The position numbers and the translations under genes were made by a program. From a virus (taxonomy: Duplodnaviria > Caudoviricetes): 64,000 nucleotides of DNA. Below are positions 1,532 to 54,333 of this stretch, piece by piece (the first letter of the stretch is position 1; each line of letters opens with the position of its first letter). The notes beneath the pieces were generated by a model. It was given only the letters and a program-made list of their open reading frames with translations, was not told where the DNA came from and searched no databases. Location: positions 1,462 to 65,461 of the IMG/VR virus record IMGVR_UViG_3300045996_004591. The stretch is one strand, 5' to 3'.

Positions 1532-2052
1532 GGCCTGCGCCCCTTGAGTTCGTCGGCCAGCAGCCGCGCCATTGGCGGTGCGATTTCCTTAGTCAGAAGG
1601 CTGGCTAGATCGTTGCGCGGCAGCGAGTCAACGGCAAGGCGGCTGATCCCGTAGCAGACCTCGCGGCCAGAGAAGGCAATGCGCGCGTGGACGGCTTCGT
1701 TCATCACGTCTGAGTGGACGCTAGAAACCAGCAACTCCAGCGGTACTGTGCGGAGCGCGACAGACAGCGGGAAGTCATCGTCCGGGGCAAGCAGCGACGG
1801 AAGTTCAGGGACCATAGCCAACATCCATTGGCAGCGATGGTTTCGCGCCGAGCTGGTTTCGGTGGTGGTCGGATCAAAGATCAGCGACAGCCGCGCGGCG
1901 CGACTTTTGGCGCGCGCAATCTCGTCTTCCGCCTTCCGGCGTTGCTCTGACTGATACGCGGCCAGTTGTGATTCCCTCTCATACGCCTCACCGAGCCGCG
2001 CGATTTCCTCGCGTGCGCGCCTGCGTTGGTTGCGTCCGAATCGCTTGCTCAT
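1528..2052 (-). CDS. Hypothetical phage protein
   Basis: MSKRFGRNQRRRAREEIARL; ATGA overlaps at both ends. Confidence 0.7.
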   Translation of the reverse strand: MSKRFGRNQRRRAREEIARLGEAYERESQLAAYQSEQRRKAEDEIARAKSRAARLSLIFDPTTTETSSARNHRCQWMLAMVPELPSLLAPDDDFPLSVALRTVPLELLVSSVHSDVMNEAVHARIAFSGREVCYGISRLAVDSLPRNDLASLLTKEIAPPMARLLADELKGRRP

Positions 2053-2335
2053 GTCGTCAGTCCTTGAGGTGCTGGCAGCAGCCTGGAGAGCAGGCCGCGC
2101 TGGTGGTTGTGGTGTGGGCAAACATCGAGATCCGGGCCCAGGTGCAGCGCGTGGTCTCGCAGATCGGCACGTCGCAGCCGGGCCAGTCGCACAGGTAGGG
2201 CGCCATCTGAAGGCAGCGAACCAGTTCGCCGGCTTTCGTGCGCAGGTAGAACGGGCAGGCCTTCGGTGGGTTCTTGCGCGCCTTGCCGCCCAGGTTGATA
2301 TGGACCATCAGGCCGCCGACGCGGTAGTAAGGCAT
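2049..2335 (-). pseudogene. Cys/His-rich phage protein with apparent 1-bp frameshift near 2156
   Basis: CDWPGCDVPICE continues in another frame as DHALHLGPDLDVCPHH, ending at an ATGA overlap with the next gene. Confidence 0.6.
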
Positions 2336-2637
2336 CAGAACGGCACTCCGTCGTGAACTGCTGCCAGCTGCGCAACGCGCCTGGTCTCCATCACCTTGCC
2401 ATTGATGTTCACGTGCGTCGGAGCTTCGATGTTCACGCTCACCATGACGGCTTCGAACAAGACGAAGCGGCCGTTCGGGTGGTAGCGCTGTAGGCGCAGC
2501 GCCTCCTGCTCAGCGACTTGTCGTGAGCACTGCAGAACGGTTGGTCGCTTGTCCGCCGGGATGCGATGCAGCGTATGCGGCCCGCTGGTCCAGTTGTCGG
2601 ACTCGGCCATGTCGAGGATGAGGAAGGCTTCGTCCAT
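2335..2637 (-). CDS. Hypothetical protein ending in SSB-tail-like DGVPF
   Basis: MDEAFLILDMAE start overlaps upstream TGA (TGATG). Confidence 0.65.
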   Translation of the reverse strand: MDEAFLILDMAESDNWTSGPHTLHRIPADKRPTVLQCSRQVAEQEALRLQRYHPNGRFVLFEAVMVSVNIEAPTHVNINGKVMETRRVAQLAAVHDGVPF

Positions 2638-2981
2638 CAGGTCTCCACGTGCGCCGAAACCGGGAACGGCCAGCAGGTGAGAGGACATTCGACAGCCTTG
2701 CTTGCCACAGGCGCAGCGGCAGCCTGCAGGCGATCGCGCGCAGCTTCCTCGGGGAAGTGGGCCGCCACGTAGGCCTCGACTTCTTCCCGGGTGCAACCGT
2801 AGGCTTGCAGTGCCTCACGGGCCGTCTTGCCAAAGGTGCCGCGGGCAAGGCGAACAACGCTGTCGCCGCAGCGCACACAATCGCGACGCTCGCCGATACC
2901 CCACATCGTGCGCGAATCGTTTTGGACAGCGCGGTACGCGGTCACCTTGCGCTTGATGTGGCGCTTGCACGGGTCGATCAT
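2637..2981 (-). CDS. Hypothetical protein
   Basis: MIDPCKRHIKRK...WPFP; translationally coupled. Confidence 0.6.
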   Translation of the reverse strand: MIDPCKRHIKRKVTAYRAVQNDSRTMWGIGERRDCVRCGDSVVRLARGTFGKTAREALQAYGCTREEVEAYVAAHFPEEAARDRLQAAAAPVASKAVECPLTCWPFPVSAHVET

Positions 2982-3628
2982 GGCTTGAGCCTCCGGAACG
3001 AAACGGCCCACACCCACGGGTTCGCATCCCAGCTGCCGGGGCCGTTGATGGATTCCCACAGGTGCATGTAGGCCGTTCGCGGGCTCGCGTAGTCGCTGAA
3101 AATCGTGCTCGCCTGCGTGGGCGACTCTTTGCTGCGCTCAATGCCTTCCGCCCAGCAGTCGGCCTCGCTGATGGCCTGCAGCCGCTCGACGCGCACGCCG
3201 GTCACTTCCAGCAGAATGCGGCTGGCCCAGCGCGGCATGAACATTGACGGACGTAGCTTGCCTGTGCATTCATCGCGCGGCGCCATACCGTTGGCCTCGT
3301 ACCAGACCGAGTGCGGTTGCAGATCGCGCGGAGGCATGTCGTCGCACCGCCCGTCGTCGCCTGTCGTGCGCCATGCTTCGCGCACCCAGAGCCGGTCGCC
3401 TGGCTGGCCGTAGGGGCATGCGAACAGATTGCCGCCGCTACCGTGCCCGGTTGCGGCCAGCACCCAAGCCCAGTTGCCCTGGGAGTTTTTGTACGGCGCG
3501 ACTGGACTCAGCCCGGCACCACCATTCGGCTGGGGCTGCGGCTTCACCACTCGGCGCGTCTGCGTCTTCGTGCCGGCCAGCAGCGCGCGGATCATGGGAG
3601 CGGAAAAGAGAATGGGCCGCTCGGTCAT
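2978..3628 (-). CDS. ASCH/PUA-like phage protein
   Basis: MTERPILFSAPMIRALLAGTKTQTRR, GDRLWVRE, PSMFMPRWASRI, WDANPWVW motifs. Confidence 0.85.
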   Translation of the reverse strand: MTERPILFSAPMIRALLAGTKTQTRRVVKPQPQPNGGAGLSPVAPYKNSQGNWAWVLAATGHGSGGNLFACPYGQPGDRLWVREAWRTTGDDGRCDDMPPRDLQPHSVWYEANGMAPRDECTGKLRPSMFMPRWASRILLEVTGVRVERLQAISEADCWAEGIERSKESPTQASTIFSDYASPRTAYMHLWESINGPGSWDANPWVWAVSFRRLKP

Positions 3629-4052: not shown

Positions 4053-4688
4053 ATGAAAAGTCGGTCGTTTGATGCGGGATGGGCACTCGTCCTGCTGTGG
4101 ATAACCGCGGCGCTGGGTATCTGGTTTCTCGCCAGCATTGCTGACAATGTGGATAGGTGGCTGATGGCAAACCAGCACCTGTCCGCGTGGGTTCAGGCGG
4201 TCGGCACCATAGCGGCGATCCTGGCAGCGGCGTGGATCGCACGACGACAGGAGCGCAAGGCGGCCCACGCGGCAAAAAGTATTGCGGTAAAGAAGGCGGT
4301 GACCTTTGCGGCTACCGTTCAGAATGGCGCCGAAGAGGTGCGCGAGAAGGGCTCGATGTGGACCCAGCACTCCAAATTGCGGCGCCTTGTGCTCGAAGAG
4401 GCAGTGCTGGACGCGAGGACTATCGACGTGGCTTTGCTTAACCTCGAATGGCTCGTGGCTGTGCACGGGCTGCGAAGCATCGCGGTGCAGATGTGCGAAG
4501 TGATGCGTCAGTTCGAAAGCAGTTCCGAACGTGAGATTGCTGCTAGCGACCCCCGTTACCAGGGTTTGGCTCGATCCATTACCTACGAGAAAATGGCGAC
4601 TGCCATCGCCGAATACGAGCCAAAGATCCAGAACCTCATCGAGATCTTGAGAAAGAAGCATCCTGGTGTCGATGCGTATGCAGAATAG
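4053..4688 (+). CDS. Antisense moron, membrane-anchored protein with two N-terminal TM segments
   Basis: GGAGGG SD; LSAWVQAVGTIAAILAAAWIARRQ TM motif; visibly lower GC. Confidence 0.8.
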   Translation: MKSRSFDAGWALVLLWITAALGIWFLASIADNVDRWLMANQHLSAWVQAVGTIAAILAAAWIARRQERKAAHAAKSIAVKKAVTFAATVQNGAEEVREKGSMWTQHSKLRRLVLEEAVLDARTIDVALLNLEWLVAVHGLRSIAVQMCEVMRQFESSSEREIAASDPRYQGLARSITYEKMATAIAEYEPKIQNLIEILRKKHPGVDAYAE

Positions 4689-41058: not shown

Positions 41059-44000
41059 ATGGCCGACACCAATCCGTTTGCCGATCCCAACTTCGGCGCG
41101 GACGCCGCAAACCCCTTCTCGGACCCGAGCTTCGGCAAGCCGTCCGGCGCGATTCGCCGTCTTGCCGACAAGGCCGTCGGCTTCGGTGCCGGTGCTGCCG
41201 GCGCGACCAAGGCCATCGCTGACGTCGCCGGTGCGGGCAACCCCGTCTCCGGCGTGCTCGACAGCGCCACCAGGGGCCTGAACAGCCTGCTCAGCCCGGA
41301 AGCGCAAGCCGACCAGGCGCAGCAGCAGGCCATCATGGCCGAGGCCAACGGCAAGGGCCTCTGGGAAGGCGTGAAGGCCGGCGCCCGTGCGTTCGGTGTC
41401 GCCCCCGTGCAGACGGCGGTGACCGGACTGGGCTCAGTGGTTCCTACCGTGGCGGCAGGCCTGGCCACCGGCGGCGCGTCGGTTCCGGCATCGCTGGCCA
41501 CCATGGGCGCGATCGGCCTGGCGCAAGGGGCGGGTACCGTGAAGGGCGCCATCTACGACGACGTGCGCGAGCGCTCCACCGATGCGGGCATGAGTCCCGA
41601 GGATGCGCAGGCCGCGGCGACGCGTGCGCAGGAGTTCAGCGGCCCCAACGCGGGCAATATTGCCATCGGCGCCGGGCTGGGCGTGGGTGACGCGCTCACC
41701 GGTGTGACCAAGGTGGCCACTTCGATGCTGCGCCGCGGCGTGGGCAAGGCCGCGCTGGCCGAGGGCAGCACGCGCGGCGTCATGGCGCGCACCGGGCTTG
41801 GCATCGCGGGCGAAATGCCGCTGGAAATTGCCCAGGGCGGGCAGGAGAAGTACGCCGCCAACGTCGCCTCCGCGCGCCAAGGCTTCGATGTCGACCCGAT
41901 GGAGGGCGTCGCGGCGCAGGGCACGCTGGAAGGATTGGCCGCAGCCGGTCCCGGCGCTGCCTTCGGTGCGTTCAACAAGGCGCACCCTGCACTAGTCACC
42001 CCGCCGCCGCCCGCGGCACCGCCCGCCGGCCCGATGACCGCCGCGCTGATCGCCGGTGGCCAGTGGAAAGCGCTGGGCGTTGCCGATCCGCAGGACGACC
42101 TCGCACGCCAGAAGCGCATCAGCGAGACCGGGCAGGCCTGGCAGGACATCGCCCCGACGACGCCGGCCGAGGATCTGGCCGCGCAAAAGCCACTCGAGCA
42201 GCGCGCCTCCGAGGAAGCCGGCGCCGCCGCCTCGCGCGCCACGGATGAACGTATTGCCGCTGTGGGCAAGCAGTGGCAGGACCTGGGCATCACGGACCCG
42301 TCTACCGACCTGCAGCGCCAGCGCGCGGGCCTGACCCCGGCCGAAGAGCGCGGCGTCGACGCCAACGCTGGCCCCCTGTCCGGCGCCGCTGCGATGGCGC
42401 TGAATGCCGGTGTCACGCAGGGCATGGAAGCGCAGAACGCCGAGACCGCCAACGACATCACCGACGGTGGAACCCCGTTTAAGGGCGCCATTCCCGCGCG
42501 CCGCGCTGCCGATAAGGCCGGGGAGGGCTGGAGCGTGGTGAAGGTGCAGGACGGCTATGTCGTTCGCCCCTCGCCCGAAGTCGTCCGGACCGCCGAGAGC
42601 GGCAAACCCACCGAACCTGCGAAGGCCACCGATGCGAAAGCCACCGCTGCCCAATCCGCGCCCGCCGCGGCTGCCCCGGTTCCTGAGACTGGCCGCACAG
42701 CGACTGCGCTATCACCCGCACCAGTTCCAGCGGCTGGACCTGCTGGCACTGGCGCTGACGCCAACCCGGCACTGAAGGGAGTTCCCAATGGTCAGCGACA
42801 AGGAGAAGGTACGCCACCTGCTGGAGTCGGCGCGGCGCGAGTCCAACCTGGCCCTGATCGAGCGCAACCGCCGGCAGTACGAACAGAAGCGCCAGGCAAG
42901 ACGGCTGATGCAGCAGGCGCTGCAGGCGGCGCAACGCAAGGAGCCAAGCCGCTGACACTGGGCTCGATGCCCAACCAGGCCGAGCCTGTGACGGTCAAGG
43001 ACGGCGTGATCCACGTAGGCAAGTTGCCGGCGCTGAACTTCGACACGGGCGCGCCGATCGTCGCCCCCCGGGACGCCACGGCCACGCAGATCAAGCAGCT
43101 GCTCAAGGACGCGGGCGCGGTCGGAAACAGGCAGAGATTCTTTGGTGGAACGGAGCAAACCAGTGCAGCGCAACCCCAGTCGCAAGACACTCAAACGCCA
43201 GTTGCAGCGCGACCTGGACCGCAGAAGGCCGAAGCCGGAGCAGCCGCCGCGCCAGCAGGAAACACCGCCGGCGTGGAAGCCGCTGGGGTAGCACGCCCGG
43301 CCAACTGGCGCACCAACTTCATGGTTGCCACGCAGGTCGCCAAGAGCGTCGGAATCCCCTACGAGCAGGGCCGCAAGCTGGCCGATCTGGTGGCGATGGT
43401 GGACGCGAAGGATGGCAAGGCGCCGCCCAACGAGAGCGACCAGGACCGCAGCAACCGCGAGTTTGCCGAGAACTATGGGCGCGTGACCGGGAACATCAAG
43501 GCGTCGACGGACAAGGAGATCGACCGCGCGATCATGTTCTCCGAGAAGCAGTTCTCCAACCTGCAACCCAAGGCGTGGGCCGGCGACGAGCAGGCCAAGC
43601 GCATGATGACGGCCTATGAGCAGGAAGCCGAGGGCCTGAAGCAGGAGCAGCGCATCCGCAAGGGGCAGGACCCCGTCACCGGCAAGAAGCCGGTTACGCC
43701 GCAGGTGCCGCCCGCCGCCAGCGCCAACACCGTATTCACGCAGGATGCCGCGGCAGTGGCGCGCGCGCTGATCAAGGCCCGCCTGGCTAAGCCCGCCGCC
43801 ACGACGGACACCACCCCTGCCGCCGAAGTGCTGCGCGGCGCCGTGGACGTCATGCCCGCGGCCGACAAGGCCACGCTCGAGGCGCACTACGGTGAGAAGC
43901 CCGGCACTGCCGCCTTCTTCGACCGCGTGCGCGATGACGTCGCCACCTTCGTCAACAAGGGTGCCGCGGCCATTGCCTCGGGTATTCGCAGCATCATCAA

Positions 44001-47000
44001 GAGCCTGGCCGAGGGCGTGCTGGCGCTGGGCATCGTGTTCAACCCGATGGGGCTGAAGACCGACTACAGCTTCGATCTGCCCGCCGTCCACAAGCAGACC
44101 ATCACCCAGACCCGGCAGGTGAAGGCCGAACCGCCGCTGGAGGCGATCGCCGGCATGTCCGGCCCAGCCATCACGGTCTACGAGAACATGGCCCCCACGG
44201 CCAAGACCTCGGGCAAGGGGTTCATCATCGCGGACAAGCCCGCGGGCATGATGCACGTGTTCGCCGCCGACGGCTCGCTGATCGCGCAGGACACAGCGCT
44301 GTACGGCAAGGACAAGGGCGACCGGATGGGCGTTTCGTCGCTCAAGGGTGGCCCGAAGGTGACCCCGGCCGGCGGGTTCGCGCTGCGCTGGGCTGAGAGT
44401 GAATACGCCGGCGGCCAGCAGCTGGAACTGGTGGGCTCCGAGGACGCGGACGGCGCGGTCATTGCCGTGCACGCCGCCTGGCTGGGCGACCCGAAAGAAA
44501 AGCGGGCCGAACGCCTAGCCAGCCTGACCGCCGATGACAACCGCATCAGCTACGGGTGCATCAACAGCGCCCACGACACATTCCTGAACAAGGTGCTGCC
44601 CGAGGCCCCGAACCTGGACGGCGGCATGGCCTTCGTGCTGCCCGACGAGTCGGACGCGGGCGCCCTGTTCCCGGCCGGCACGACCACCGAAACCACCACC
44701 ATCGAGGCAGCCGAGCGCAACGCGCGCGAGGGCACCGTGGGCGGCCAGCAAATGGGCATGGGCGGGCGCGCTCGCACCGCAACCCGTTCGGGCACGCCGC
44801 CGCGCGGGCTGGATCCAGAATTGACGCAGGCCGGCATCACCATGGCCGGCTTCCACATCGAGGGCGGTAGTCCGACCTTCGCGTCCTATGCCCGCGCCAT
44901 GCTGGACGACCTGGGCGAGGCCGTGCGCCCGTACCTGAAAAGCTGGTACATGGCCGTCAAGTACGACCCGCGCGCTGGAGATTTCAGCGCCAAGATGAGC
45001 ACGGCGGGCTTCGTGGAGGAATTTGACCTCGCGCACATCGCGGCGCCGTCCGACAGCCCAGCGGTTGAAAAATCCGGCCCGAGCGCCGATACTGGAGACT
45101 CAAATGCCGCAGCAACACGCCGCCTGGATCAGTCAGGCACGAGCCCACTGGAAGGAATACCGTCCGGCGATGTACGCGCGCCTGCAGGAAAGCGGCCGGC
45201 TGGAGCAGGAGCTGCAGGAGGCCGCAACGGCGACCAGCCAGGCGGTGGCCGTGCTGACCCGGCAGGGCGCGACCTGGCAGGAGGCCTGGGAGCAGACCCG
45301 GGAGCAGTACCTGTTTCCCCCAGAGGAAACGCCGACGCAGCGCCAGCCGGAAAGCCTGGGGTTCAAGGCCCACAAGGGGCTGATGCGCGACCTGGGCGAG
45401 CTGAAGATGCCGGGCGAGAAGTAGCGCCCAACGCGCCGCCCATCCCGGCGCCGCAGTACACCCCGCCCGCAGACTTCACCATCGACGCCGAGCTCGCGCT
45501 GGGCGAAGGCGGGCAAAAGACCAAGTTCCGCAACAACGTCGCGGCGATCACTCTGCTCAAGAAGCTGCTGGCCGAGGGCTTGCAAGCCTCCGCGGACGAG
45601 CAGCAGGTGCTGGCCAAGTACGTCGGCTGGGGCGGCCTGCCGCAGGCCTTCGACGCCAACAACCGGGAATGGGCCAACGAGCACGCCCAGCTGAAGGAAC
45701 TGCTGGACGACAAGGAGTTCTCGGCCGCGCGCCGCTCGACCCGCTACGCCCACTACACCAGCCGCGAAATCATTCAGGATGGTATCTACGCGGCGCTGCG
45801 CCGCTTTGGCTTCACCGGGGGCCGCGCGCTGGAAGGCGGCGCCGGCGTGGGCAACTTCATCGGGCTCATGCCGCAGGACCTGCGCGCTGCCGGCCGGGTG
45901 ACGGCCATCGAGCGCGAGCCGATCGCCGCGGGCATTGCCCGCAACCTGTACCCGAACCAGAGCGTGCAGCTGGCCAACTTTACCGAGTTCAAGGGCACGG
46001 ACGGTTACTTCGACGTGGCGATCGGGAATCCTCCCTTCGCCAGCGACCCGCAAACCGACCGGTCCGGACGCAAGCACCTGTCAGGGCTGTCTCTGCACAA
46101 CTACTTCTTCGCCAAGGAAGTGGACATGCTGCGCGAGGGCGGCATCCTGGCGCAGGTAGTGACCAACAGCTTCCTGGACGCCGCAGGAGACAAGGCGCGC
46201 AGCTACATCAGCGACCGCACCCGGTTCCTGGGCGCCATCCGGCTGCCGAACAACGCATTCAGCAAGAACGCCGGCACCGAGGTCACCACCGACCTGATCT
46301 TTCTGCAAAAGCGCCCTGAGGCCGAGTGGGGCACCAAAGCCACCCGCGCCGAGGCCAAGGCCTGGCTGGACGTTGTCAAGGTCACCGACGCGCGCAAGGG
46401 CGTGGCCTTGAACATCAACCAGTATTTCAAGGACCACCCGGAAATGATGCTGGGCGACTTCGGCGCCCACGGCACGATGTATGGCCCAGACCAGCCGGCA
46501 CTCGTTGCCCGCAAGGGGCAGGACACGTTGGCGATGCTCAAGGAAGCCGTCAAGCGCCTGCCCGATGCGGTGTACGTCGACCGCGCGACGCTCGGCACCG
46601 ACGCCGCCGTCGACGCCGCGATCAAGGCGCTCACCCGCCCGCCCGTCCAGGAGGGCGGCTTCTTCGTGGACGAGCAGGGCATCCTGACCCAGCGCGTGAA
46701 CGACATAGCCGGGGAGGCGCGCGGGCGCGAAATCAACGCCGAGACCCAGTGGACGGCCAAAACCAAGCTGGGCGAAGCCGGCGCGGCCAAGATCCGCTCG
46801 CTCGCTGCGATGCGAGTCACCCTGCGCTCGCTACTGGCGGCCGAACTGGCCGACGAGGTGGACAAGGCCACCGCACTGCGCGCCCAGCTGAACACCCAGT
46901 ACGACGGCTACACCAAGGAGCACGGGCTGCTGAACGACACGGCGACGGCGCGGGTGTTCGATGACGACCCGGACTTTCCGCTCCTGCTGTCGCTGGAGCA

Positions 47001-50000
47001 CAACTATGTGCCCGGCATCGGGATTGCCGCGGCCAAGCGCCAGAACCTCAAGCCCACCAAGAGCACGGCGACCAAGTCGCCCATCTTCAAGCGCCGCGTG
47101 GTCGACAGCCGCAAGGCCGTGCAGAAGGTGGAGACGCCTGCCGATGCGCTGGCCGTTTCGATGGCCGAGCGCGGCAAGCTCGATACCGCCTACATCGGCA
47201 AGCTGCTGGGCAAGGCGCCCGAGGACGTGCTGGGCGAGTTGAGCACCGGCGCCAAGCCGCTGCTGTTCCTGGACCCGGCCACCGACGAATACGTGCTGCG
47301 CGACGCCTACCTGTCGGGCAACGTGCGCGAAAAGCTCGCGCAGGCCAAGGCCGCGGGCTTGTCGACCAACCAGCGTGCGCTCGAGGCGGTGCAGCCGCAC
47401 GACGTCGGCGCCCACGAAATCAGCGCCCGCGTGGGCTCGCCCTGGGTGCCCACGGCGGTCTACGAGGACTTCGCTAAGGAACTGTTCGGCGAGGGCACCA
47501 CCGCCTCGATCAAGTACGTCAAGCTCAATAGCTCCTATGCCGCGTACATTCACGCCGGCTCGGACGTCAACGCCACCAACAAGTGGGGCACGAAAGACTA
47601 CAGCGGCCCGGAACTGATCAGCGCGCTGCTGAACAACCGCACCATCAAGGTCACGTGGACGGACAAGGAAGGCACGCACGTGGACCAGCCGGCCACCGAG
47701 CAGGCCAACCTGAAGGCCCAGGAGATCCGTGAACGCTTTCAGGACTGGCTTTTCAGCGACGCGGCCCGATCCGAAGTGCTGGTACGCGCCTACAACGACA
47801 CCAACAACAACTATGTGACGCGCGAGTACGACGGCACGTGGATGACGTTCCCGGGCAAGGTCCCCAATGACGTGATCAAGTTCCGCAGGCACCAGCGCAA
47901 CGCGATCGCCCGCATCGTGCAGGACCGCACCGCGCTGCTGGACCATGTGGTCGGCGCCGGCAAGACCTTCACCGTGGTGGCCGCCGCAATGGAGCTGCGC
48001 CGCACGGGCCTGGCGCGAAAGCCCATGGTGGCCGTGCCGAACCATCTGGTCAAACAGTGGGCCGCCGACTTCTACCGCCTGTACCCGGGCGCCAACATCC
48101 TCACGGCCACCAAGAAGGACTTCGAGAAGATCAACCGCCGCCGCTTCCTGGCCAAGATCGCCACCGGCGACTGGGACGCCGTGGTCATCGCGCACAGCTC
48201 GTTCGGGTTCATCAAGCCCGGCACCGAGTTCGAGGCCAGCTTCAACGACCGGCAGGTGGCCCTGATCATGGAAACGATCAAGGCCGTGCAGGAAGAAGAA
48301 GGCGACGAGCGCGCCAAGAAGCGCACCGTCAAGCAGTTGGAGGGCATGCAGGAGCGCCTGGAGAACCGCATTGCCAGCCTGCGCGACAAGGCCATGGACG
48401 ATCTGCTGGACTTCGAGCAGTTGGGCGTGGACCAGCTGTTCGTGGACGAAGCGCACATGTTCAAGAACCTGATGTTCTCCACCAAGATGCAGGGTGTGCA
48501 GGGGCTGGGCGACGCCAAGGGCAGCCAGCGCGCCTATGACATGTACGTGAAGTCCCAGGAGGTGATGGAAAAGAACGGCCGCGGGCAGGGGCTGGTGTTC
48601 GCCACCGGCACGCCGGTATCCAATTCGCTGGCCGAGAAGTACCACATGATGCGGTACCTGATGCCCCGGCAGATGCAGGAGCTGGGCTTCCAGAGCTTTG
48701 ACGCCTGGGCCAACACCTTCGCCAGCGTCGAGCAGGTCTGGATGCAAAAGCCCAGCGGCGATGGCTACAAGGCCAGCAACCGCATGAGCAACTTCGTGAA
48801 CGTGCACGAGCTGCTGAAAATGTTCGACCAGGTGGCCGACACGGTCACCATGGACGACATCAAGAAGGCCTACCGCGAGGAAAACGAGGGCAAGGAGTTC
48901 CCCATCCCGCCGCTGAAGACCGGGCGCCGGCAGCCCGTGTCGCTGGTCAAGTCGCCCGCGCAGGAGGCCTACATGGCCGACATCGCCGCGCGCGCGAAGG
49001 TGCTGGAAAGCCGCAAGGGCCCGCCGCAAAAGGGCGAAGACAACATCCTGGTGATCATGGGCGACGCCCGCAAGGCCGCCATGGACGTGCGCCTGGTGGA
49101 CCCGGACGTGACCGAGCGCGAAAAGGGCGGGCGCATTGACAAGGCCGCCGACAACATCCTCACGCGCTATCGCAAGTTCAACGCCGTGCGCGGCACCCAG
49201 CTGGTGTTCTCCGACCTGGGCACGCCCAAGAAGCACGCCCAGGCCGAACTGAAGGAGTACGACGCGCTGCAGGCCCGCATCGACGCGGCAACCGACGACG
49301 TGCGGCTGCGCGCATCGCTGGGCGCCGAGGAAGCCCAGGCGCTGGTGGATGACGCCGAGGATGCCCAGGAGGCCATGGACAAGCAGGGTCCGGACTGGCT
49401 CACCGCCGTCAAGGCCGCCCAGCGCGGTTTCAGCGTCTACGACGACTTGAAGGATGCGCTCATCGGGCGCGGCATCCCCGAGCACGAAGTCGCCTTCATC
49501 CACGACTACAACACCGACGAGCGCAAGGCTACCTTGTTCCGCAAGGTCAACGCCGGCGAGGTGCGGGTGGTGATCGGCTCCACCGCCAAGATGGGCGCGG
49601 GCACCAACGTGCAGGAGCGCGCCGTCGCGCTGCACCATCTGGATGTGCCGTGGCGCCCGTCGGACGTGGAACAGCGCGAGGGCCGTATCGAGCGGCAGGG
49701 CAACAAGCTGCTGGAGGAAATCCCGGGCTTCGAGGTAGAAATCCTGGCCTACGTGACGCAGGACACGCTGGACATGCGCATGTGGCAAATCCAGGAGGTC
49801 AAGCTCAAGATGATCAACCAGCTGCGCACGCGGCAGATTGACCGGGACATCGACAACGCCTTCGAGGATATGGAAATGTCGGCCGGCGAAATGCAGGCAG
49901 CGGCGACCGGCAACATGGATTTGCTGCTGGAGATCCAGGCCCGCGCGGACATCAAGAAGCTCGAGCAGAAGGCGCGCAGCTTCGACGCGCAAAAGAGCGA

Positions 50001-53000
50001 CCTCATCAACCGCAAGAGAAGCGCCGCCGCCCGGCTCGCGCAGCTGCCCGCGCAGATCAAGAGCGCCGAGGTGCTGGCCGAGGGCTCCACGCAGTACGCG
50101 CAGGCGATCGAGAAGCAGACCGCTGCTTTCAGCGTCAACCTGGACGGCACGGACTTCACTGACCGCCAAGCCGCCAGCGCGTACCTGCTGGAGAAAATCG
50201 ACGCGCGCATTGCCGACCCGGACAAGAAGCCCGGCGAGGATGGTGAGCCGGCTACCAAGGCCGCACCGCTGGACGTGAGCATGAACGGCGAGCGCTACAC
50301 GGCGCGCGCCAAGCTGCAGGAGGCCTGGAGCAACGCCGCCGGCGACCGCGACCCCATCCAGTGGCAGTACGAGGGCAAGACCTACAACCGCCGCAGCGCG
50401 ATCGCCACGGCCATCCGGCAGCCCGTGGCCGACGCGTTGGCCGACGAAACGCAGGTGGTGCTCGGCAAGATCGGGCCGTTCGACGTGATCGGCGAGGGCC
50501 AGCAAAGCAAGTTATGGGGCTCCATGATCGAAGTCGTTCTCTCCTACAAGGGCGAGAAGATGGACAGCACGTTCAGCGCGGGCGAGAAGCCTGACACGCT
50601 GAAGATGGCCGAGCAGATCGCCTCATGGGCTGACCGCAAGGCCTATGGCGCCAAGTTCGAGCTCCAGCACCTGCAGGGCAGCCTGCGCAGCGCGCAAGAA
50701 GCCGCCGCCGATCTGGAAAAGGCCGAAGACCTGGGCGAGTGGCCCGACCGGCCCAAGCTGGAGGCCGCGCGCGAGAAGCACAAGGCGATTCTGGCCCGCC
50801 TGAACGGCGCCGGCGCCAAGCCCTTGACCGAGGCCGGCGACTACGACCCGGCCGGCGACAGCTCCGAGGCGGGCAACACCACGGACGTGGTCTTCTCCAA
50901 GAAGCCCGACACCGCCAGTCAGCGCGCCGCCGATGCGGCCACCCGCATGCAGCCCAGCGCCGTGCAGCAGGCCGTCTCCGAACTGACCCGCGACTGGCTG
51001 CGCAAGCCGGAAATCGTCATCCTGGAGAACATGCGCGACGATAAGGTACCGGCCGCGGTGCAGCGGGAATACCAGCGCCAGGAAAGCCAAGGCGGCTCAG
51101 GCGATGTTCAAGGCTTCCACATGAGCGGCACGGTTTACATCGTGTCCGACTCGATGAGGAACGCCCGGGACGTGCAGGAGGTGCTGTTCCATGAATCGCT
51201 GGGCCACTTCGGCATGCGCGGCTTCTTCGGCAAGGCGCTGAACCCGATGCTCGAGGAAATCGTCGCTACCCGGAAGTTCCAGGTGGCCAAGAAGGCGCGC
51301 GAGTACGGGCTGGACATGAGCAAGGGCGCCGACCGGCTGATGGCGGCTGAGGAAGTGCTGGCCGAGCTGGCGCAGACCCGGCCCGAGTTGAGCATCGTGC
51401 AGCGCGCCATTGCGGCGATCCGCACGTGGCTGCGCGAGCACGTGGCCGCGTTCAAGGACTTGGCGCTGACGGACGCGGAAATCATCAACCGCTTCATCCT
51501 GCCGGCGCGCGGCTTCGTGGAGCGCGGCACCTCGGGCAAGGCGACGTTCACCCGCGGGCCGGCAAGCCGTCCGCAGGCATCGCTTGAACCCCGCACCGAC
51601 CGGGTGCAGTTCAGCAAAAAGTCCGTCTTGACCGGCCAGGACATCCCCAGCACGTGGCAGGGCCCGGACGCCTCCAAGCTGGACGACGTGATCTATTCGA
51701 TGCAGGACAAGCACGTCGACACCCGCCGGGTGGTGCAGGCGGTGCGCGCGGCGATCGGCACCATTGACGACCAGCAGGACCCGTACCTGCAGGAAGAGCT
51801 GTTCCACGGCCGCGCCGCAATGGCCACCAAGGAGTTCCTGGAAAAGAGCCTGCGCCCGCTGCTGAACGACCTGCAGGCGCGCAAGGTGGATATGTCCGAC
51901 CTCGAGGAATACCTACACAACCGGCACGCCGAGCGCCGCAACATCCAGGTGGCCAAGGTCAACCCGGCCATGCCCGACGGCGGCTCCGGGATCAAGACGG
52001 CCGACGCCCGTGCCTACCTGGCCGCTCTGCCGGCCGACAAGCGCGCCGCCTACCAGGCGCTGGCGCAGCGGGTGGACGCCATCAACCGCGAGACCCGGGC
52101 CCTGCTGGTGTCCTCCGGGTTGGAAAAGCAATCCACCATCGACGCCTGGCAAGCCGCCTACGGGGATGAGTACGTGCCCCTGATGCGCGAGGACATGGAC
52201 AACGCCTCCACCGGCATCGGCCAGGGCTACAGCGTCAAGGGCAGCGCCAGCAAGCGCGCGCTGGGCAGCAACAAGCCGGTGGCCAACATCATCGCCAACA
52301 TCGCGCTGCAGCGGGAAAAGACCATCACCCGGGCCGAAAAGCGCCGCATCGGCGAGGCGGTGTACGGCCTGGCCCTGAAGGCGCCGAACCCGGAGTTCTG
52401 GTTCGCGGTGGATCCGAAGCTGCAGCAAAACCCGGCCAACGTCACCGCGGCGGCCATCCAGTTGATCAGCATGGGGCTGGACCCGATGGACGCGGCCAGC
52501 ATCGCCAAGGAGCCGACCCAAAGCTACATCGACCCGACCACCAAGCAGGTGACCCAGCGCATCAACCCGGCGCTGCGCAGCATGAACAACGTGCTGGCCG
52601 TTCGGGTGGACGGCGAGGACAAGTTCGTTTTCTTCAACCAGAAGGACGAGCGCGCGATGCGCATGGCCACGGCCTTGAAGAACCTGGACGCCGACCAGCT
52701 GGGCACCGTCATGGGCACAGTGGCCAAGATGACTCGGTATTTCTCGGCCATCAACACCCAGTACAACCCGATCTTCGGGGTGACCAACATCACGCGGGAC
52801 GTGCAGACGGCCCTCCTGAACCTCAACTCGACGCCCTTGAAGGACCACAAGGCCGAGGTGATGAAGCACATCCTGCCGGCGCTGCGCGGGATCTACATCG
52901 ACCTGCGCGACCACCGAGCCGGCAAGCAGCCGACGTCCTCCTACGCGCAGATCTTCGAAGAGTTCCAGCGCGAGGGCGGGGCCACGGGCTACCGCGATAT

Positions 53001-54333
53001 GTACGCCAACGCCAAGGACCGGGCCGAGGCGATCGCCGACGAGCTCAAGGCGATCAAGCAGGGCAGGGCCATGAGCGTGGGCCGCGGCATCATGGGCTGG
53101 CTGTCCGACTACAACGAGTCGATGGAGAACGCCGTGCGCGTCTCGGCCTACAAGGTGGGCAAGGAGCAGGGCCTGTCCAACCAGCAGGCCGCGAGCCTGG
53201 CCAAGAACCTGACGGTGAACTTCAACCGCAAGGGGCAGGTGGCGCTGCAGGCCGGTGCGCTCTATGCGTTCTTCAATGCTTCGGTTCAGGGCACGGCGCG
53301 GATTGCGCAGACCGTGTTCGCCGACGGCAAGCTGTCCGCCACGGGCCAGAAGATCATGGCCGGCGGGCTGCTGCTGGGTGCGATGCAGGCGCTGCTGCTG
53401 GCCGCCGCGGGCTTCGATGACGACGAGCCGCCGGACTTCGTGCGCGAGCGCAGTCTGGTGTTCCCGGTGGGCGGCGGCAAGTACGTGTCCATCCCCATGC
53501 CGCTGGGCTTTCACGTCATCCCCAACCTGGGGCGGATCCCGACCGAATGGGCGATGGGCGGATTCAAGAACACACCCAAGCGCATCGGGCAGATGGTGGG
53601 CCTGTTCGCCGACGCCTTCAACCCGATGGGCTCGGCCGGGCTGTCGCTGCAGACCCTGACCCCGACCATCATCGACCCGCTGGCCGCGCTGTCGGAGAAC
53701 AAGGACTGGAGTGGCCGGCCGATCGCCAAGAAGGACTTCGATGCGATGCACCCGACGGCAGGGCACACCCGGGCGCGCGATACCGCCACCCCTTGGGCGC
53801 GGCTCATGTCCTACGGGATGAATGCGCTCACGGGCGGGACCGACTTCAAGCCGGGCGTGGCCAGCCCGATGCCGGACCAGATCGACTATCTGATCGGCCA
53901 GGTCACCGGCGGCGTGGGCCGCGAGGTGGGCAAGCTCTCGCAGGTGGCCAGCGGAACCCTGTCGGGCGAAGAAGTGCCGATGCACAAGATCCCGCTGGTC
54001 GGGCGCTTCGTGGGCACCACCGAGGGCCAGTCTGCGGAGTCCTCGCGCTTCTACAACAACCTGCGTGAGCTCGGAGCGCACAAGGTCGAGATCGACGGGC
54101 TGCGCAAGGAGAACCGGGGAGCCGAGGTGCTGGGCTACATCCGGGACAACCCGGCCGCGGCGCTGGTGCCGATGGCCGAGCGGGCCCACCGGGAGGTCGC
54201 CAAGCTGCAGGCGGCCAAGCGGGCGCTGATCAACAAGGGCACGCCGCCCGACCAGGTGAAGTTCCTGGACATGCGCGCCACCTCGATGATGAAGGCGCTG
54301 AACGAACGGGTGCGGACGACTGAGGGGGGTTAG
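41059..54333 (+). CDS. Giant polyvalent ejection-type protein: LDT-like + DarB-like N6 MTase/SNF2 helicase + zincin-like + LPD38-like
   Basis: VHAAW..ISYGCIN; LEGGAGVGNF and GNPPF; VGAGKT, DEAH, TGT, QREGRIERQG; HESLGH; C-terminal LPD38-like region. Confidence 0.9.
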   Translation: MADTNPFADPNFGADAANPFSDPSFGKPSGAIRRLADKAVGFGAGAAGATKAIADVAGAGNPVSGVLDSATRGLNSLLSPEAQADQAQQQAIMAEANGKGLWEGVKAGARAFGVAPVQTAVTGLGSVVPTVAAGLATGGASVPASLATMGAIGLAQGAGTVKGAIYDDVRERSTDAGMSPEDAQAAATRAQEFSGPNAGNIAIGAGLGVGDALTGVTKVATSMLRRGVGKAALAEGSTRGVMARTGLGIAGEMPLEIAQGGQEKYAANVASARQGFDVDPMEGVAAQGTLEGLAAAGPGAAFGAFNKAHPALVTPPPPAAPPAGPMTAALIAGGQWKALGVADPQDDLARQKRISETGQAWQDIAPTTPAEDLAAQKPLEQRASEEAGAAASRATDERIAAVGKQWQDLGITDPSTDLQRQRAGLTPAEERGVDANAGPLSGAAAMALNAGVTQGMEAQNAETANDITDGGTPFKGAIPARRAADKAGEGWSVVKVQDGYVVRPSPEVVRTAESGKPTEPAKATDAKATAAQSAPAAAAPVPETGRTATALSPAPVPAAGPAGTGADANPALKGVPNGQRQGEGTPPAGVGAARVQPGPDRAQPPAVRTEAPGKTADAAGAAGGATQGAKPLTLGSMPNQAEPVTVKDGVIHVGKLPALNFDTGAPIVAPRDATATQIKQLLKDAGAVGNRQRFFGGTEQTSAAQPQSQDTQTPVAARPGPQKAEAGAAAAPAGNTAGVEAAGVARPANWRTNFMVATQVAKSVGIPYEQGRKLADLVAMVDAKDGKAPPNESDQDRSNREFAENYGRVTGNIKASTDKEIDRAIMFSEKQFSNLQPKAWAGDEQAKRMMTAYEQEAEGLKQEQRIRKGQDPVTGKKPVTPQVPPAASANTVFTQDAAAVARALIKARLAKPAATTDTTPAAEVLRGAVDVMPAADKATLEAHYGEKPGTAAFFDRVRDDVATFVNKGAAAIASGIRSIIKSLAEGVLALGIVFNPMGLKTDYSFDLPAVHKQTITQTRQVKAEPPLEAIAGMSGPAITVYENMAPTAKTSGKGFIIADKPAGMMHVFAADGSLIAQDTALYGKDKGDRMGVSSLKGGPKVTPAGGFALRWAESEYAGGQQLELVGSEDADGAVIAVHAAWLGDPKEKRAERLASLTADDNRISYGCINSAHDTFLNKVLPEAPNLDGGMAFVLPDESDAGALFPAGTTTETTTIEAAERNAREGTVGGQQMGMGGRARTATRSGTPPRGLDPELTQAGITMAGFHIEGGSPTFASYARAMLDDLGEAVRPYLKSWYMAVKYDPRAGDFSAKMSTAGFVEEFDLAHIAAPSDSPAVEKSGPSADTGDSNAAATRRLDQSGTSPLEGIPSGDVRAPAGKRPAGAGAAGGRNGDQPGGGRADPAGRDLAGGLGADPGAVPVSPRGNADAAPAGKPGVQGPQGADARPGRAEDAGREVAPNAPPIPAPQYTPPADFTIDAELALGEGGQKTKFRNNVAAITLLKKLLAEGLQASADEQQVLAKYVGWGGLPQAFDANNREWANEHAQLKELLDDKEFSAARRSTRYAHYTSREIIQDGIYAALRRFGFTGGRALEGGAGVGNFIGLMPQDLRAAGRVTAIEREPIAAGIARNLYPNQSVQLANFTEFKGTDGYFDVAIGNPPFASDPQTDRSGRKHLSGLSLHNYFFAKEVDMLREGGILAQVVTNSFLDAAGDKARSYISDRTRFLGAIRLPNNAFSKNAGTEVTTDLIFLQKRPEAEWGTKATRAEAKAWLDVVKVTDARKGVALNINQYFKDHPEMMLGDFGAHGTMYGPDQPALVARKGQDTLAMLKEAVKRLPDAVYVDRATLGTDAAVDAAIKALTRPPVQEGGFFVDEQGILTQRVNDIAGEARGREINAETQWTAKTKLGEAGAAKIRSLAAMRVTLRSLLAAELADEVDKATALRAQLNTQYDGYTKEHGLLNDTATARVFDDDPDFPLLLSLEHNYVPGIGIAAAKRQNLKPTKSTATKSPIFKRRVVDSRKAVQKVETPADALAVSMAERGKLDTAYIGKLLGKAPEDVLGELSTGAKPLLFLDPATDEYVLRDAYLSGNVREKLAQAKAAGLSTNQRALEAVQPHDVGAHEISARVGSPWVPTAVYEDFAKELFGEGTTASIKYVKLNSSYAAYIHAGSDVNATNKWGTKDYSGPELISALLNNRTIKVTWTDKEGTHVDQPATEQANLKAQEIRERFQDWLFSDAARSEVLVRAYNDTNNNYVTREYDGTWMTFPGKVPNDVIKFRRHQRNAIARIVQDRTALLDHVVGAGKTFTVVAAAMELRRTGLARKPMVAVPNHLVKQWAADFYRLYPGANILTATKKDFEKINRRRFLAKIATGDWDAVVIAHSSFGFIKPGTEFEASFNDRQVALIMETIKAVQEEEGDERAKKRTVKQLEGMQERLENRIASLRDKAMDDLLDFEQLGVDQLFVDEAHMFKNLMFSTKMQGVQGLGDAKGSQRAYDMYVKSQEVMEKNGRGQGLVFATGTPVSNSLAEKYHMMRYLMPRQMQELGFQSFDAWANTFASVEQVWMQKPSGDGYKASNRMSNFVNVHELLKMFDQVADTVTMDDIKKAYREENEGKEFPIPPLKTGRRQPVSLVKSPAQEAYMADIAARAKVLESRKGPPQKGEDNILVIMGDARKAAMDVRLVDPDVTEREKGGRIDKAADNILTRYRKFNAVRGTQLVFSDLGTPKKHAQAELKEYDALQARIDAATDDVRLRASLGAEEAQALVDDAEDAQEAMDKQGPDWLTAVKAAQRGFSVYDDLKDALIGRGIPEHEVAFIHDYNTDERKATLFRKVNAGEVRVVIGSTAKMGAGTNVQERAVALHHLDVPWRPSDVEQREGRIERQGNKLLEEIPGFEVEILAYVTQDTLDMRMWQIQEVKLKMINQLRTRQIDRDIDNAFEDMEMSAGEMQAAATGNMDLLLEIQARADIKKLEQKARSFDAQKSDLINRKRSAAARLAQLPAQIKSAEVLAEGSTQYAQAIEKQTAAFSVNLDGTDFTDRQAASAYLLEKIDARIADPDKKPGEDGEPATKAAPLDVSMNGERYTARAKLQEAWSNAAGDRDPIQWQYEGKTYNRRSAIATAIRQPVADALADETQVVLGKIGPFDVIGEGQQSKLWGSMIEVVLSYKGEKMDSTFSAGEKPDTLKMAEQIASWADRKAYGAKFELQHLQGSLRSAQEAAADLEKAEDLGEWPDRPKLEAAREKHKAILARLNGAGAKPLTEAGDYDPAGDSSEAGNTTDVVFSKKPDTASQRAADAATRMQPSAVQQAVSELTRDWLRKPEIVILENMRDDKVPAAVQREYQRQESQGGSGDVQGFHMSGTVYIVSDSMRNARDVQEVLFHESLGHFGMRGFFGKALNPMLEEIVATRKFQVAKKAREYGLDMSKGADRLMAAEEVLAELAQTRPELSIVQRAIAAIRTWLREHVAAFKDLALTDAEIINRFILPARGFVERGTSGKATFTRGPASRPQASLEPRTDRVQFSKKSVLTGQDIPSTWQGPDASKLDDVIYSMQDKHVDTRRVVQAVRAAIGTIDDQQDPYLQEELFHGRAAMATKEFLEKSLRPLLNDLQARKVDMSDLEEYLHNRHAERRNIQVAKVNPAMPDGGSGIKTADARAYLAALPADKRAAYQALAQRVDAINRETRALLVSSGLEKQSTIDAWQAAYGDEYVPLMREDMDNASTGIGQGYSVKGSASKRALGSNKPVANIIANIALQREKTITRAEKRRIGEAVYGLALKAPNPEFWFAVDPKLQQNPANVTAAAIQLISMGLDPMDAASIAKEPTQSYIDPTTKQVTQRINPALRSMNNVLAVRVDGEDKFVFFNQKDERAMRMATALKNLDADQLGTVMGTVAKMTRYFSAINTQYNPIFGVTNITRDVQTALLNLNSTPLKDHKAEVMKHILPALRGIYIDLRDHRAGKQPTSSYAQIFEEFQREGGATGYRDMYANAKDRAEAIADELKAIKQGRAMSVGRGIMGWLSDYNESMENAVRVSAYKVGKEQGLSNQQAASLAKNLTVNFNRKGQVALQAGALYAFFNASVQGTARIAQTVFADGKLSATGQKIMAGGLLLGAMQALLLAAAGFDDDEPPDFVRERSLVFPVGGGKYVSIPMPLGFHVIPNLGRIPTEWAMGGFKNTPKRIGQMVGLFADAFNPMGSAGLSLQTLTPTIIDPLAALSENKDWSGRPIAKKDFDAMHPTAGHTRARDTATPWARLMSYGMNALTGGTDFKPGVASPMPDQIDYLIGQVTGGVGREVGKLSQVASGTLSGEEVPMHKIPLVGRFVGTTEGQSAESSRFYNNLRELGAHKVEIDGLRKENRGAEVLGYIRDNPAAALVPMAERAHREVAKLQAAKRALINKGTPPDQVKFLDMRATSMMKALNERVRTTEGG
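42788..42955 (+). CDS. Overprinted +1-frame ORF, 55-aa basic helical protein
   Basis: AAGGGAG SD; G/C third-position bias in the +1 frame; MVSDKEKVRHLLESARR. Confidence 0.5.
   Translation: MVSDKEKVRHLLESARRESNLALIERNRRQYEQKRQARRLMQQALQAAQRKEPSR
45104..45424 (+). CDS. Overprinted +1-frame ORF, 106-aa TnpV-like protein
   Basis: GGAGA SD; codon bias switches to the +1 frame; HWKEYRPAMYARLQESGRLEQEL. Confidence 0.7.
   Translation: MPQQHAAWISQARAHWKEYRPAMYARLQESGRLEQELQEAATATSQAVAVLTRQGATWQEAWEQTREQYLFPPEETPTQRQPESLGFKAHKGLMRDLGELKMPGEK

Follow-up and report, generated by a model that had tools for sequence, protein, structure and literature searches.

A probable second gene nested out of frame in the linker of a giant DarB-like virion gene, in a slot shared by several families of small proteins

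Can a giant phage virion gene carry a second, complete gene in another reading frame, and, if it does, what has the second gene to do with the first? The question is raised by a 64,000-nucleotide stretch of viral DNA (the window in what follows) that covers bases 1462-65461 of the 65,461-bp IMG/VR record IMGVR_UViG_3300045996_004591, a metagenome-derived provirus. On the plus strand of the window, a giant polyvalent virion gene of the DarB-like type (41059..54333) forms an open reading frame (ORF) of 4424 amino acids, and wholly inside it, on the same strand and offset by +1, lies a small ORF of 106 amino acids (45104..45424). A preliminary description, made from the letters of the window alone, had proposed that the small ORF is a real second gene, co-encoded in the linker just before the methyltransferase of the giant protein. 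We compared the locus with its relatives in phage records, IMG/VR and species genomes, and the conservation, the start signals and the frame-specific selection seen across more than 70 loci bear the proposal out. On this sequence evidence, we consider it probable (about 85%) that 45104-45424 is a protein-coding gene, separately selected and nested in the +1 frame of the giant virion gene.

Two reading frames over the same stretch of the window

The nested ORF, which defines what we call family A, runs from an ATG at 45104 to a TAG at 45422-45424. The core of a Shine-Dalgarno (SD) motif, GGAG, is found on the same strand at 45095..45098, 5 bases before the ATG. The longer motif GGAGA reported earlier at 45094-45098 is real, but its coordinates were one base too far left, as it occupies 45095-45099. 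The +1 frame is free of stops from 45023 to 45424 and is open for 27 codons ahead of the ATG.

The composition of the codons changes frame together with the ORF. Over the whole giant gene, the G+C content (GC) at codon positions 1, 2 and 3 is.67/.47/.88. Across the overlap, the giant frame (45103-45423) has.88/.71/.47 and the +1 frame (45104-45424) has.71/.47/.89, that is, the pattern switches to the +1 frame exactly over the nested ORF and then back. The contrast between G/C-ending codons in the +1 frame and A/T-ending codons in the giant frame, also part of the preliminary description, is borne out by these third positions (.89 vs.47). A sliding scan of the 13.3-kb giant gene found only three stretches that favour another frame, at 42.56-43.0, 43.1-43.34 and 45.02-45.5 kb, the last of them containing the nested ORF.

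The giant protein changes character over the same bases. Just upstream is a conserved helical module that we call domain X (44707..45054, plus strand), recognised by the profile of our A3 alignment, which matches nt 1104-1451 of L082, the window's own locus in the comparison sets, with an E value of 4e-44; this region of the giant protein also matches positions 1995-2069 of phrog_938. There follows a linker (45055..45426, plus strand) that stays open, although its sequence is not conserved, and whose translation is of low complexity and rich in G, A, R, P, D and E; a G/A/R/P-rich low complexity of the giant ORF had already been noted here in the preliminary description. Directly after the stop codon of the nested gene begins the DarB-like unit (45427..46761 for its start, plus strand), with an N-terminal helical region and an Eco57I-type N6-adenine methyltransferase (Pfam Eco57I and MTS), which is matched by the profile of the A4 alignment at nt 1824-3158 of the window's locus (E 8e-197). 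The giant frame over the nested gene appears to serve as a disordered linker between domain X and the methyltransferase-helicase unit.

Relatives and conservation of the layout

A tblastn search with the 106-residue product recovered 21 phage records from 12 phages, with every match under a giant gene, and the hosts of these phages belong to Erwinia, Klebsiella, Pseudomonas, Ochrobactrum, Vibrio, Sinorhizobium, Agrobacterium and Microcystis. Frames in the phage records were assigned by hand arithmetic on the coordinates of the annotated coding sequences (CDSs), and by this reckoning the small gene is +1 to the annotated giant CDS in 7 of 9 family A records (Pavtok, SopranoGao, PEp14, POI1126, VvAW1, Atu_ph08 and Mwe-JY07). 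Two scans of IMG/VR and one scan of species genomes added 36 loci each, those from the genomes coming from Comamonadaceae, Rhizobiales, Acinetobacter, Chlorobium, Acidobacteriota, a planctomycete and others. We thus compared 75 non-identical family A loci, the window's own included. In 61 of them the small gene is nested in an open giant frame that hosts it at +1, three more are cut by contig ends, and a single one, from phage PBC5, has the small domain in the frame of the upstream gene. Cultured phages that were sequenced independently show the nested layout, with a stop that ends the small frame, as do genomes whose GC spans 0.38 to 0.70, and the record of the window itself contains one copy of it.

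Standard gene callers had been expected to miss such a gene, and they do: counting all the nested families described below, none of the 20 phage records fetched (0/20) annotates the nested gene as a separate CDS.

The record of Pseudomonas phage Itty13 (L002) annotates two CDSs opposite to the giant DarB-like frame. As this frame is open across the whole 3195-nt locus, the two CDSs were likely called on the wrong strand of this GC-rich DNA.

Start signals and frame-specific selection

The start of the small gene is well conserved. An ATG stands 2 to 13 codons ahead of a conserved Trp in 46 of 46 sequences (one of them anchored by hand), and an SD-like tetramer is present at positions -16 to -5 in 40 of 43 unique family members, compared with 447 of the 3325 other ATG trinucleotides in the same loci (13.4%). 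A scripted check of the 36 genome loci found the ATG in 34 and the SD-like motif in 30, with one edge-cut locus and one anchoring failure as misses.

Selection was assessed on a gap-free core of 69 codons in 42 sequences, using Nei-Gojobori proportions of nonsynonymous (pN) and synonymous (pS) differences. For pairs with more than 85% nucleotide identity (3 pairs), the median pN/pS is 0.006/0.156 in the small frame and 0.040/0.018 in the giant frame; the corresponding medians for pairs with 75-85% identity (18 pairs) are 0.156/0.434 (small frame), 0.243/0.140 (giant frame) and 0.226/0.160 (third frame). At the amino acid level, the mean identity of the small frame is 0.528, compared with 0.354 for the giant frame and 0.360 for the third. 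Since pN is lower than pS in the nested frame only, and the identity of the giant frame is about that of the third frame, the sequence of the linker drifts like noncoding DNA. A comparison of homologues by frame had been suggested as a check on the proposed gene, and its outcome, purifying selection in the +1 frame and a giant frame that behaves like the third, agrees with it.

What the giant frame keeps is its openness. It is open in 61 of 61 nested loci, compared with 4.7 expected from synonymous resampling of the small protein's codons, although the nested set was chosen for openness and the fair count is therefore 61+3, or 64 of 75. In the 12 loci with a GC of 0.54 or less, the probability of such openness is 0.005 or less, and the same resampling predicts an open third frame in 1.3 loci, with 0 observed. 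The codon positions offer a reason for this tolerance. Position 1 of the giant-frame codons is the G/C-rich position 3 of the nested gene, and all stop codons begin with T, so the giant frame stays open cheaply; the same pairing explains why the linker is rich in Gly, Ala, Arg, Pro, Asp and Glu. Over the nested gene, the giant frame would only have to be kept free of stops, and the pairing of codon positions, as read from the genetic code, would make this cheap.

The small ORF is contained in a longer ORF of the same strand and has its own start codon and ribosome-binding site; its frame is under purifying selection and the frame of the host gene is maintained. These are among the features expected of an embedded out-of-frame gene.

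The small protein and its likeness to TnpV

A profile search retrieved 1313 representative clusters at an E value of 1e-3 or less (424 at 1e-10 or less and 9 at 1e-30 or less), and most of the family A representatives have 75-130 amino acids and start at the first residues of the family. A second protein database gave 319 proteins at an E value of 1e-3 or less, the named ones being called "hypothetical protein", and a precomputed Pfam domain was found in none of the 120 listed of these 319 relatives. Positions that are invariant in an alignment of 48 sequences include W8, E18, P21, G55, E60, A61, R66 and E67. The family is acidic, with a median pI of 4.99 and a median net charge of -7; the net charge of the window's member is -1.

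A helical product had been anticipated, and the AlphaFold2 model of the window's member agrees, with five predicted helices (residues 2-19, 21-30, 33-53 and 58-69 and, after a Pro-rich turn, 85-98), a predicted local distance difference test score (pLDDT) of 86.4 and a predicted template modeling score (pTM) of 0.63. Foldseek searches with this model found nothing in the PDB at an E value of 0.001 or less and one match in BFVD, Q8W6J4_2 (E 6e-6), which we take to be the C-terminal half of PBC5 orf33 (unverified). In a wide VIA search, the model matched 2apl_A (PG0816) with a Z score of 8.1 and a root mean square deviation of 2.0 over 66 residues, which for a helical bundle is a middling result. 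A profile search of the PDB sequences returned designed helical repeats only, and a search of NCBIfam with the 106-residue product gave no match.

TnpV, whose name goes back to clostridial transposons, is a small protein without an assigned function. Residues 7-67 of the window's member align with positions 25-85 of its Pfam profile, PF14198, with an E value of 0.0017 and 18.7 bits, below the cut-off of 27 bits, and a six-frame search of the window's own record with PF14198 gave 19 bits, also below this gathering cut-off. The profile matches 21 of 48 family members at an E value of 0.01 or less (best 8e-6) and is the only Pfam match that recurs; TnpV appears on 13% of the members of an ESM Atlas cluster at score 0.80. 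When true TnpV proteins were sought in 401 genomes, no genome had a PF14198 match above the cut-off (0/401). Because the match recurs but stays below the cut-off for the window's member, we call the protein distantly TnpV-like and not a member of TnpV. The resemblance put forward in the preliminary description is in this sense real, but falls short of membership. The two have a similar size and a helical character, and the match to the core of the profile is repeatable though sub-threshold; the small gene differs from TnpV in its context, which is a phage virion gene and not a transposon, and in a score under the curated cut-off. A search of the 106-residue ORF with hidden Markov models had been suggested earlier as a check, and against PHROG profiles it produced a match to positions 2088-2165 of phrog_938. 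This profile matches both domain X and the small ORF because PBC5 orf33 reads domain X and the small domain in one polypeptide.

Other families in the same slot

Family A is absent, in all three forward frames, from the phages JC1 (Bcep22-like), 8P and Skulduggery. After domain X, these phages have a low-complexity giant frame, an inverted GC periodicity and a +1 ORF with an SD motif and an ATG. In the records fetched for nested families other than A, the small gene is +1 to the annotated giant CDS in 11 of 11.

Family B (JC1 type) was found by tblastn in 23 records, which cover six Burkholderia and nine Ralstonia phages. All six Lessievirus records and the nine Ralstonia phages contain it in their DarB-like gene as an unannotated +1 nested gene of 107-112 amino acids with a strong SD motif, which in Burkholderia phage JC1 (L086) lies at 4304-4642 and in Bcep22 (L087) at 901-1224. 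In IMG/VR, 9 non-identical loci of 11 were found, and all 9 are nested with ATG and SD. In close pairs, pN is lower than pS in the small frame and higher in the giant frame; for Gerry-GP4, for example, pN/pS is 0.017/0.099 in the small frame vs 0.047/0.006 in the giant frame.

Family C (Skulduggery type) codes for about 129 amino acids and is present in eight records from six phages (Skulduggery, Parlo, ZX1, Ruegeria 45A6 and two Vibrio phages); it occupies 3261-3650 of L084 (Pseudomonas phage Skulduggery) and 901-1290 of L091 (Serratia phage Parlo). The 38 non-identical loci of 44 found in IMG/VR have a GC of 0.38-0.69 and are nested without exception (38/38), 37 with the ATG and 36 with an SD-like motif, and in 15 of them a stop lies at most 5 codons before the ATG. 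The small frame has pN below pS in 10 of 10 pairs, and the giant frame has pN above pS in 10 of 10. The structural model of family C is confident and all-helical, with eight predicted helices (pLDDT 91.3, pTM 0.84); Foldseek found nothing for it at an E value of 0.001 or less, and the best VIA match had a Z score of 4.3.

Families A and B may be related, as is suggested by hhalign (E 2.7e-4 with 42% probability, or E 5e-4 with 31% for a smaller alignment), and the family B member of JC1 matches PF14198 weakly (E 0.043). Profile comparisons of A with C and of B with C gave no detectable similarity.

In Pseudomonas phage 8P (L085, 2531-2803), a +1 ORF of 90 amino acids with an SD motif lies over a stretch of the giant frame with inverted GC periodicity. 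A tblastn search of the phage collection matched only the ORF itself, and this type stays unconfirmed.

Relation to the downstream unit

The giant protein of the window matches phrog_10089 ("DarB-like antirestriction") with an E value of 0 and 1782.8 bits, and contains the Pfam domains Eco57I, MTS, ResIII, SNF2-rel_dom, Helicase_C and, at its end, LPD38. A methyltransferase and helicase unit within a very large virion-module protein is what characterises the DarB-like polyvalent virion genes.

The order of the domains in this unit differs with the family that is nested before it. In the window (family A) and in JC1 (family B), the unit opens with an Eco57I-type methylase and the helicase comes second, and the start of the methylase could be aligned in 45 of 45 family A loci compared, from 50 nested ones. 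Downstream of family C, the unit begins with a ResIII helicase in 4 of 4 loci scanned, with the methylase following in Skulduggery. The nested family thus tracks the type of DarB-like unit downstream, and the nested gene always adjoins the 5' edge of that unit. SopranoGao and ZX1, both filed under Lastavirus in their records, carry families A and C, respectively; their nucleotide sequences are 82% identical until about 90-150 nt ahead of the nested genes, and from there on no identity is left. Since the identity ends just before the nested genes, the nested gene travels with the downstream unit.

On the basis of this covariation only, we favour a dedicated partner of the downstream unit over an unrelated passenger. 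That the small protein would be such a partner, as a helper in assembly or packaging or as a regulator, is a guess that we hold at slightly less than even odds. The role put forward in the preliminary description, a chaperone, inhibitor or packaging partner of the DarB-like unit, would be of this kind and has the same covariation in its favour. A prediction of complexes between the small protein and either domain X or the first 445 residues of the methylase unit, run twice with alignments, scored 0.00 and is uninformative either way.

The strongest alternative accepts the nested gene as real but denies it any physical or functional tie to the giant protein. The linker would then be a tolerant place for small accessory genes, e.g., antidefence effectors, that are swapped in and out. 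The occupation of one slot by at least two families without detectable similarity (A and C) would fit this, and so would the replacement of one by the other within Lastavirus, the acidic character of family A and its occurrence in unrelated neighbourhoods, where it stands alone or has a predicted membrane tail fused to it. However, the swap takes in the downstream unit as well (C with helicase-first, A and B with methylase-first), as expected of a gene that belongs with the unit, and the position against its 5' edge does not vary. We regard a gene without such a tie as unlikely, if worth keeping in view, and we would guess the same of an independent small effector that merely uses the slot.

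The dedicated-partner reading can be extended into a joint picture, which we offer tentatively and would not bet on at even odds. Across a phage supergroup, which would take in phages of Burkholderia, Ralstonia, Pseudomonas, Erwinia, Klebsiella, Serratia, Vibrio and Rhizobiales and many uncultured ones, the giant DarB-like genes would have a fixed slot where the methylase-helicase unit begins, filled by a separately translated +1 gene of at least three families that is exchanged together with the unit; the linker would be a by-product of reading an older gene, and the nested protein would be an obligatory subunit of an injected antirestriction machine.

Points against the nested gene, and the mode of its translation

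Besides the choice of the nested set for openness, several observations weigh against a separately translated gene inside the giant one. The giant frame is closed in 10 of the 75 loci, and the related sequences are not independent, so that the counts overstate the number of independent events. In the window alone, the giant frame stays open in a proportion of 0.60 of synonymous-codon resamplings (L082, 66-68% GC); its openness there is unsurprising at this GC, and the case for more than chance thus rests on the relatives. Only about 30 of 50 nested loci have domain X immediately upstream, and in Pavtok it lies further away on that side. In family B, the signal of selection is weak for the pair JC1-Bcep22 (0.122/0.206 in the small frame vs 0.133/0.154 in the giant frame), and distant pairs are saturated. 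Translation from the internal ATG is something that we only infer from the sequence, and binding of the small protein to the giant protein is putative. Finally, the small domain is read in frame in some proteins: it follows domain X in P0060, P0111 and PBC5, and a 1150-residue Ochrobactrum protein (P0274) carries it in frame too. A protein with the opposite order, the small domain and then domain X in frame, is P0054. A covalently fused form thus exists in some elements.

In the Sinorhizobium phage PBC5 (L007, 1-1794), domain X and the small domain share the frame of orf33 (2185 amino acids), which terminates at the stop of the small domain, and the methylase frame is open from 268 nt before the ATG of the small domain. 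Either the giant gene is truly split in this phage, or its sequence, an old one, contains an error.

The fused forms are also what a +1 ribosomal shift would predict. If it occurred near 45023-45104, shifted ribosomes would make a truncated product (the N-terminal part, domain X and the small domain, ending at 45424) and unshifted ones the giant protein. PBC5 orf33 fits this description exactly, and in phrog_938 a single polypeptide spans both domain X (profile positions 1995-2069) and the small domain (2088-2165). In addition, P0060, P0111 and P0274 carry the small domain in frame after upstream sequence, and the 27 open codons before the ATG leave the path free in the window. Across the family, however, the path is not free. 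The small frame is closed at most 10 codons before the start of the match in 18 of 61 nested loci, and a stop lies two codons before the ATG in Pavtok, PEp14 and SopranoGao and in three further loci (L020, L036 and L044). Moreover, a shift site needs neither the ATG kept in 46 of 46 sequences nor the SD-like motif kept in 40 of 43, and the in-frame forms retain a Met at the place where the small gene usually starts. The upstream stops make entry by frameshifting unlikely as a general mechanism and leave internal initiation as the simplest reading, and we consider a frameshift product very improbable. In the preferred reading, ribosomes would initiate within the giant mRNA, at the SD and ATG of the small gene, and so make the small protein.

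An artefact, whether a frame that is open by chance in DNA of high GC or an in-frame domain displaced by paired frameshifts from sequencing or assembly, could appeal to the many long spurious ORFs of such DNA (131 of at least 150 amino acids are listed in the window), to the metagenomic origin of the record and to two other +1-favouring stretches of the giant gene that seem compositional only, but it is contradicted by the comparative data (the same layout in independently sequenced cultured phages and genomes at GC 0.38 to 0.70, selection specific to one frame, conserved start signals and a confidently predicted fold) and is hardly credible.

Direction of the overprinting

The small gene had first been described as overprinted within the giant one. 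The overlap is real, but its direction is probably the reverse, with the linker being read across an older small gene. Among the other ARRANGEMENTS of the small domain are stand-alone copies without a giant frame, of which L061 is a clean case, and others to which a hydrophobic C-terminal region has been added (L079 and, among the representatives, P0043, P0069 and P0078). Together with the genome-typical codon composition of the small gene and the lack of constraint on the giant frame, the stand-alone copies argue that the small gene is the older of the two and that the giant ORF came to read across it. The small gene would then be the older reading, and the giant ORF would have been extended across it later.

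In Pseudidiomarina sediminum (L079, 2977-3765), the small domain is fused to a hydrophobic-looking C-terminal region of about 160 residues; the gene adjoins one with an AAA_5 domain and lies outside any giant gene.

Comparison with known systems

In phage lambda, the frame of Rz1 relative to Rz is +1. Like the embedded spanin gene Rz1 in the Rz gene of lambda and of many other phages, Bcep22-like ones included, the gene described here is a complete small gene with its own start inside a longer gene of the same strand, in another frame. Both products of the Rz/Rz1 pair are needed. The present case differs from that pair in several respects. The host here is a multi-domain virion gene of 4424 codons with the overlap in a linker predicted to be disordered, only the nested frame is conserved in sequence, and several families share one slot; the nested product, unlike the Rz1 lipoprotein, is by its model a soluble helical protein. 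The comS gene of Bacillus subtilis, nested out of frame in srfAB, codes for a regulatory peptide of 46 residues found in one lineage. It resembles the present gene in being small, having its own start and being enclosed by a giant ORF of many modules, and differs from it in that the nested proteins here are predicted folded domains of 100-130 residues conserved across many phage genera. An embedded Rz/Rz1 pair is also described for JC1, the type phage of our family B, in its report (PMC9144972).

The host gene resembles the polyvalent proteins of phages and conjugative elements (PMC5512222) and DarB of phage P1, being multi-domain with a methylase-helicase unit and LPD38. A term search of the polyvalent-protein paper by Iyer et al. 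(2017; PMC5512222) found no mention of "TnpV," "frameshift," "overlapping" or "PBC5," and as far as this search shows, a second gene in another frame does not belong to the published concept. No published description of the nested gene was found in the literature on TnpV, DarB and polyvalent proteins, overlapping or embedded genes and Bcep22-like phages. The architecture, an embedded out-of-frame gene, is a known one; what is new is its location in the linker of a giant polyvalent gene and the conserved slot that several families have in common.

To our knowledge, well-supported long overlaps of genes on the same strand are rare in bacteria and double-stranded DNA phages, and the present one is backed by many genomes across GC 0.38 to 0.70. 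It provides an example in which one frame of the overlap, a predicted disordered linker, would be nearly unconstrained and the other would code for a folded domain, with a reason for this tolerance in the codon positions. Gene callers that forbid nested genes will go on missing such genes. A conserved protein would be absent from what has been published as the annotation or the virion proteome of phages of the Bcep22-like, Pavtok-like, Lastavirus and related groups. Because the nested ORF is absent from the annotated protein sets, proteome searches could not have reported its product, and the published virion proteomes could be re-searched for the nested gene of family B (JC1 and Bcep22). For the DarB-type system, which protects injected DNA, the nested protein may be a component that has been missing so far.

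Other features of the giant gene

A consensus scan of the window found a sigma-70-like promoter match (TTGAAA, a spacer of 17 nt and GATACT) at 45065..45093 on the plus strand, which ends 10 nt ahead of the nested ATG (1 site vs 0.0 expected in 50 shuffles). It is a weak lead only and, if used, would yield a nearly leaderless transcript. The predicted RNA fold around the nested start is unremarkable, with a z score of -1.18.

The two further +1-favouring stretches of GC periodicity in the giant gene, within 42559-43338, cover three mini-ORFs whose products are rich in R, P and Q. Among the related loci compared, tblastn gave no match to these mini-ORFs at 42.6-43.3 kb, whereas the giant-frame control did match, and these stretches are probably a composition effect of Ala/Pro/Gly-rich coding sequence.

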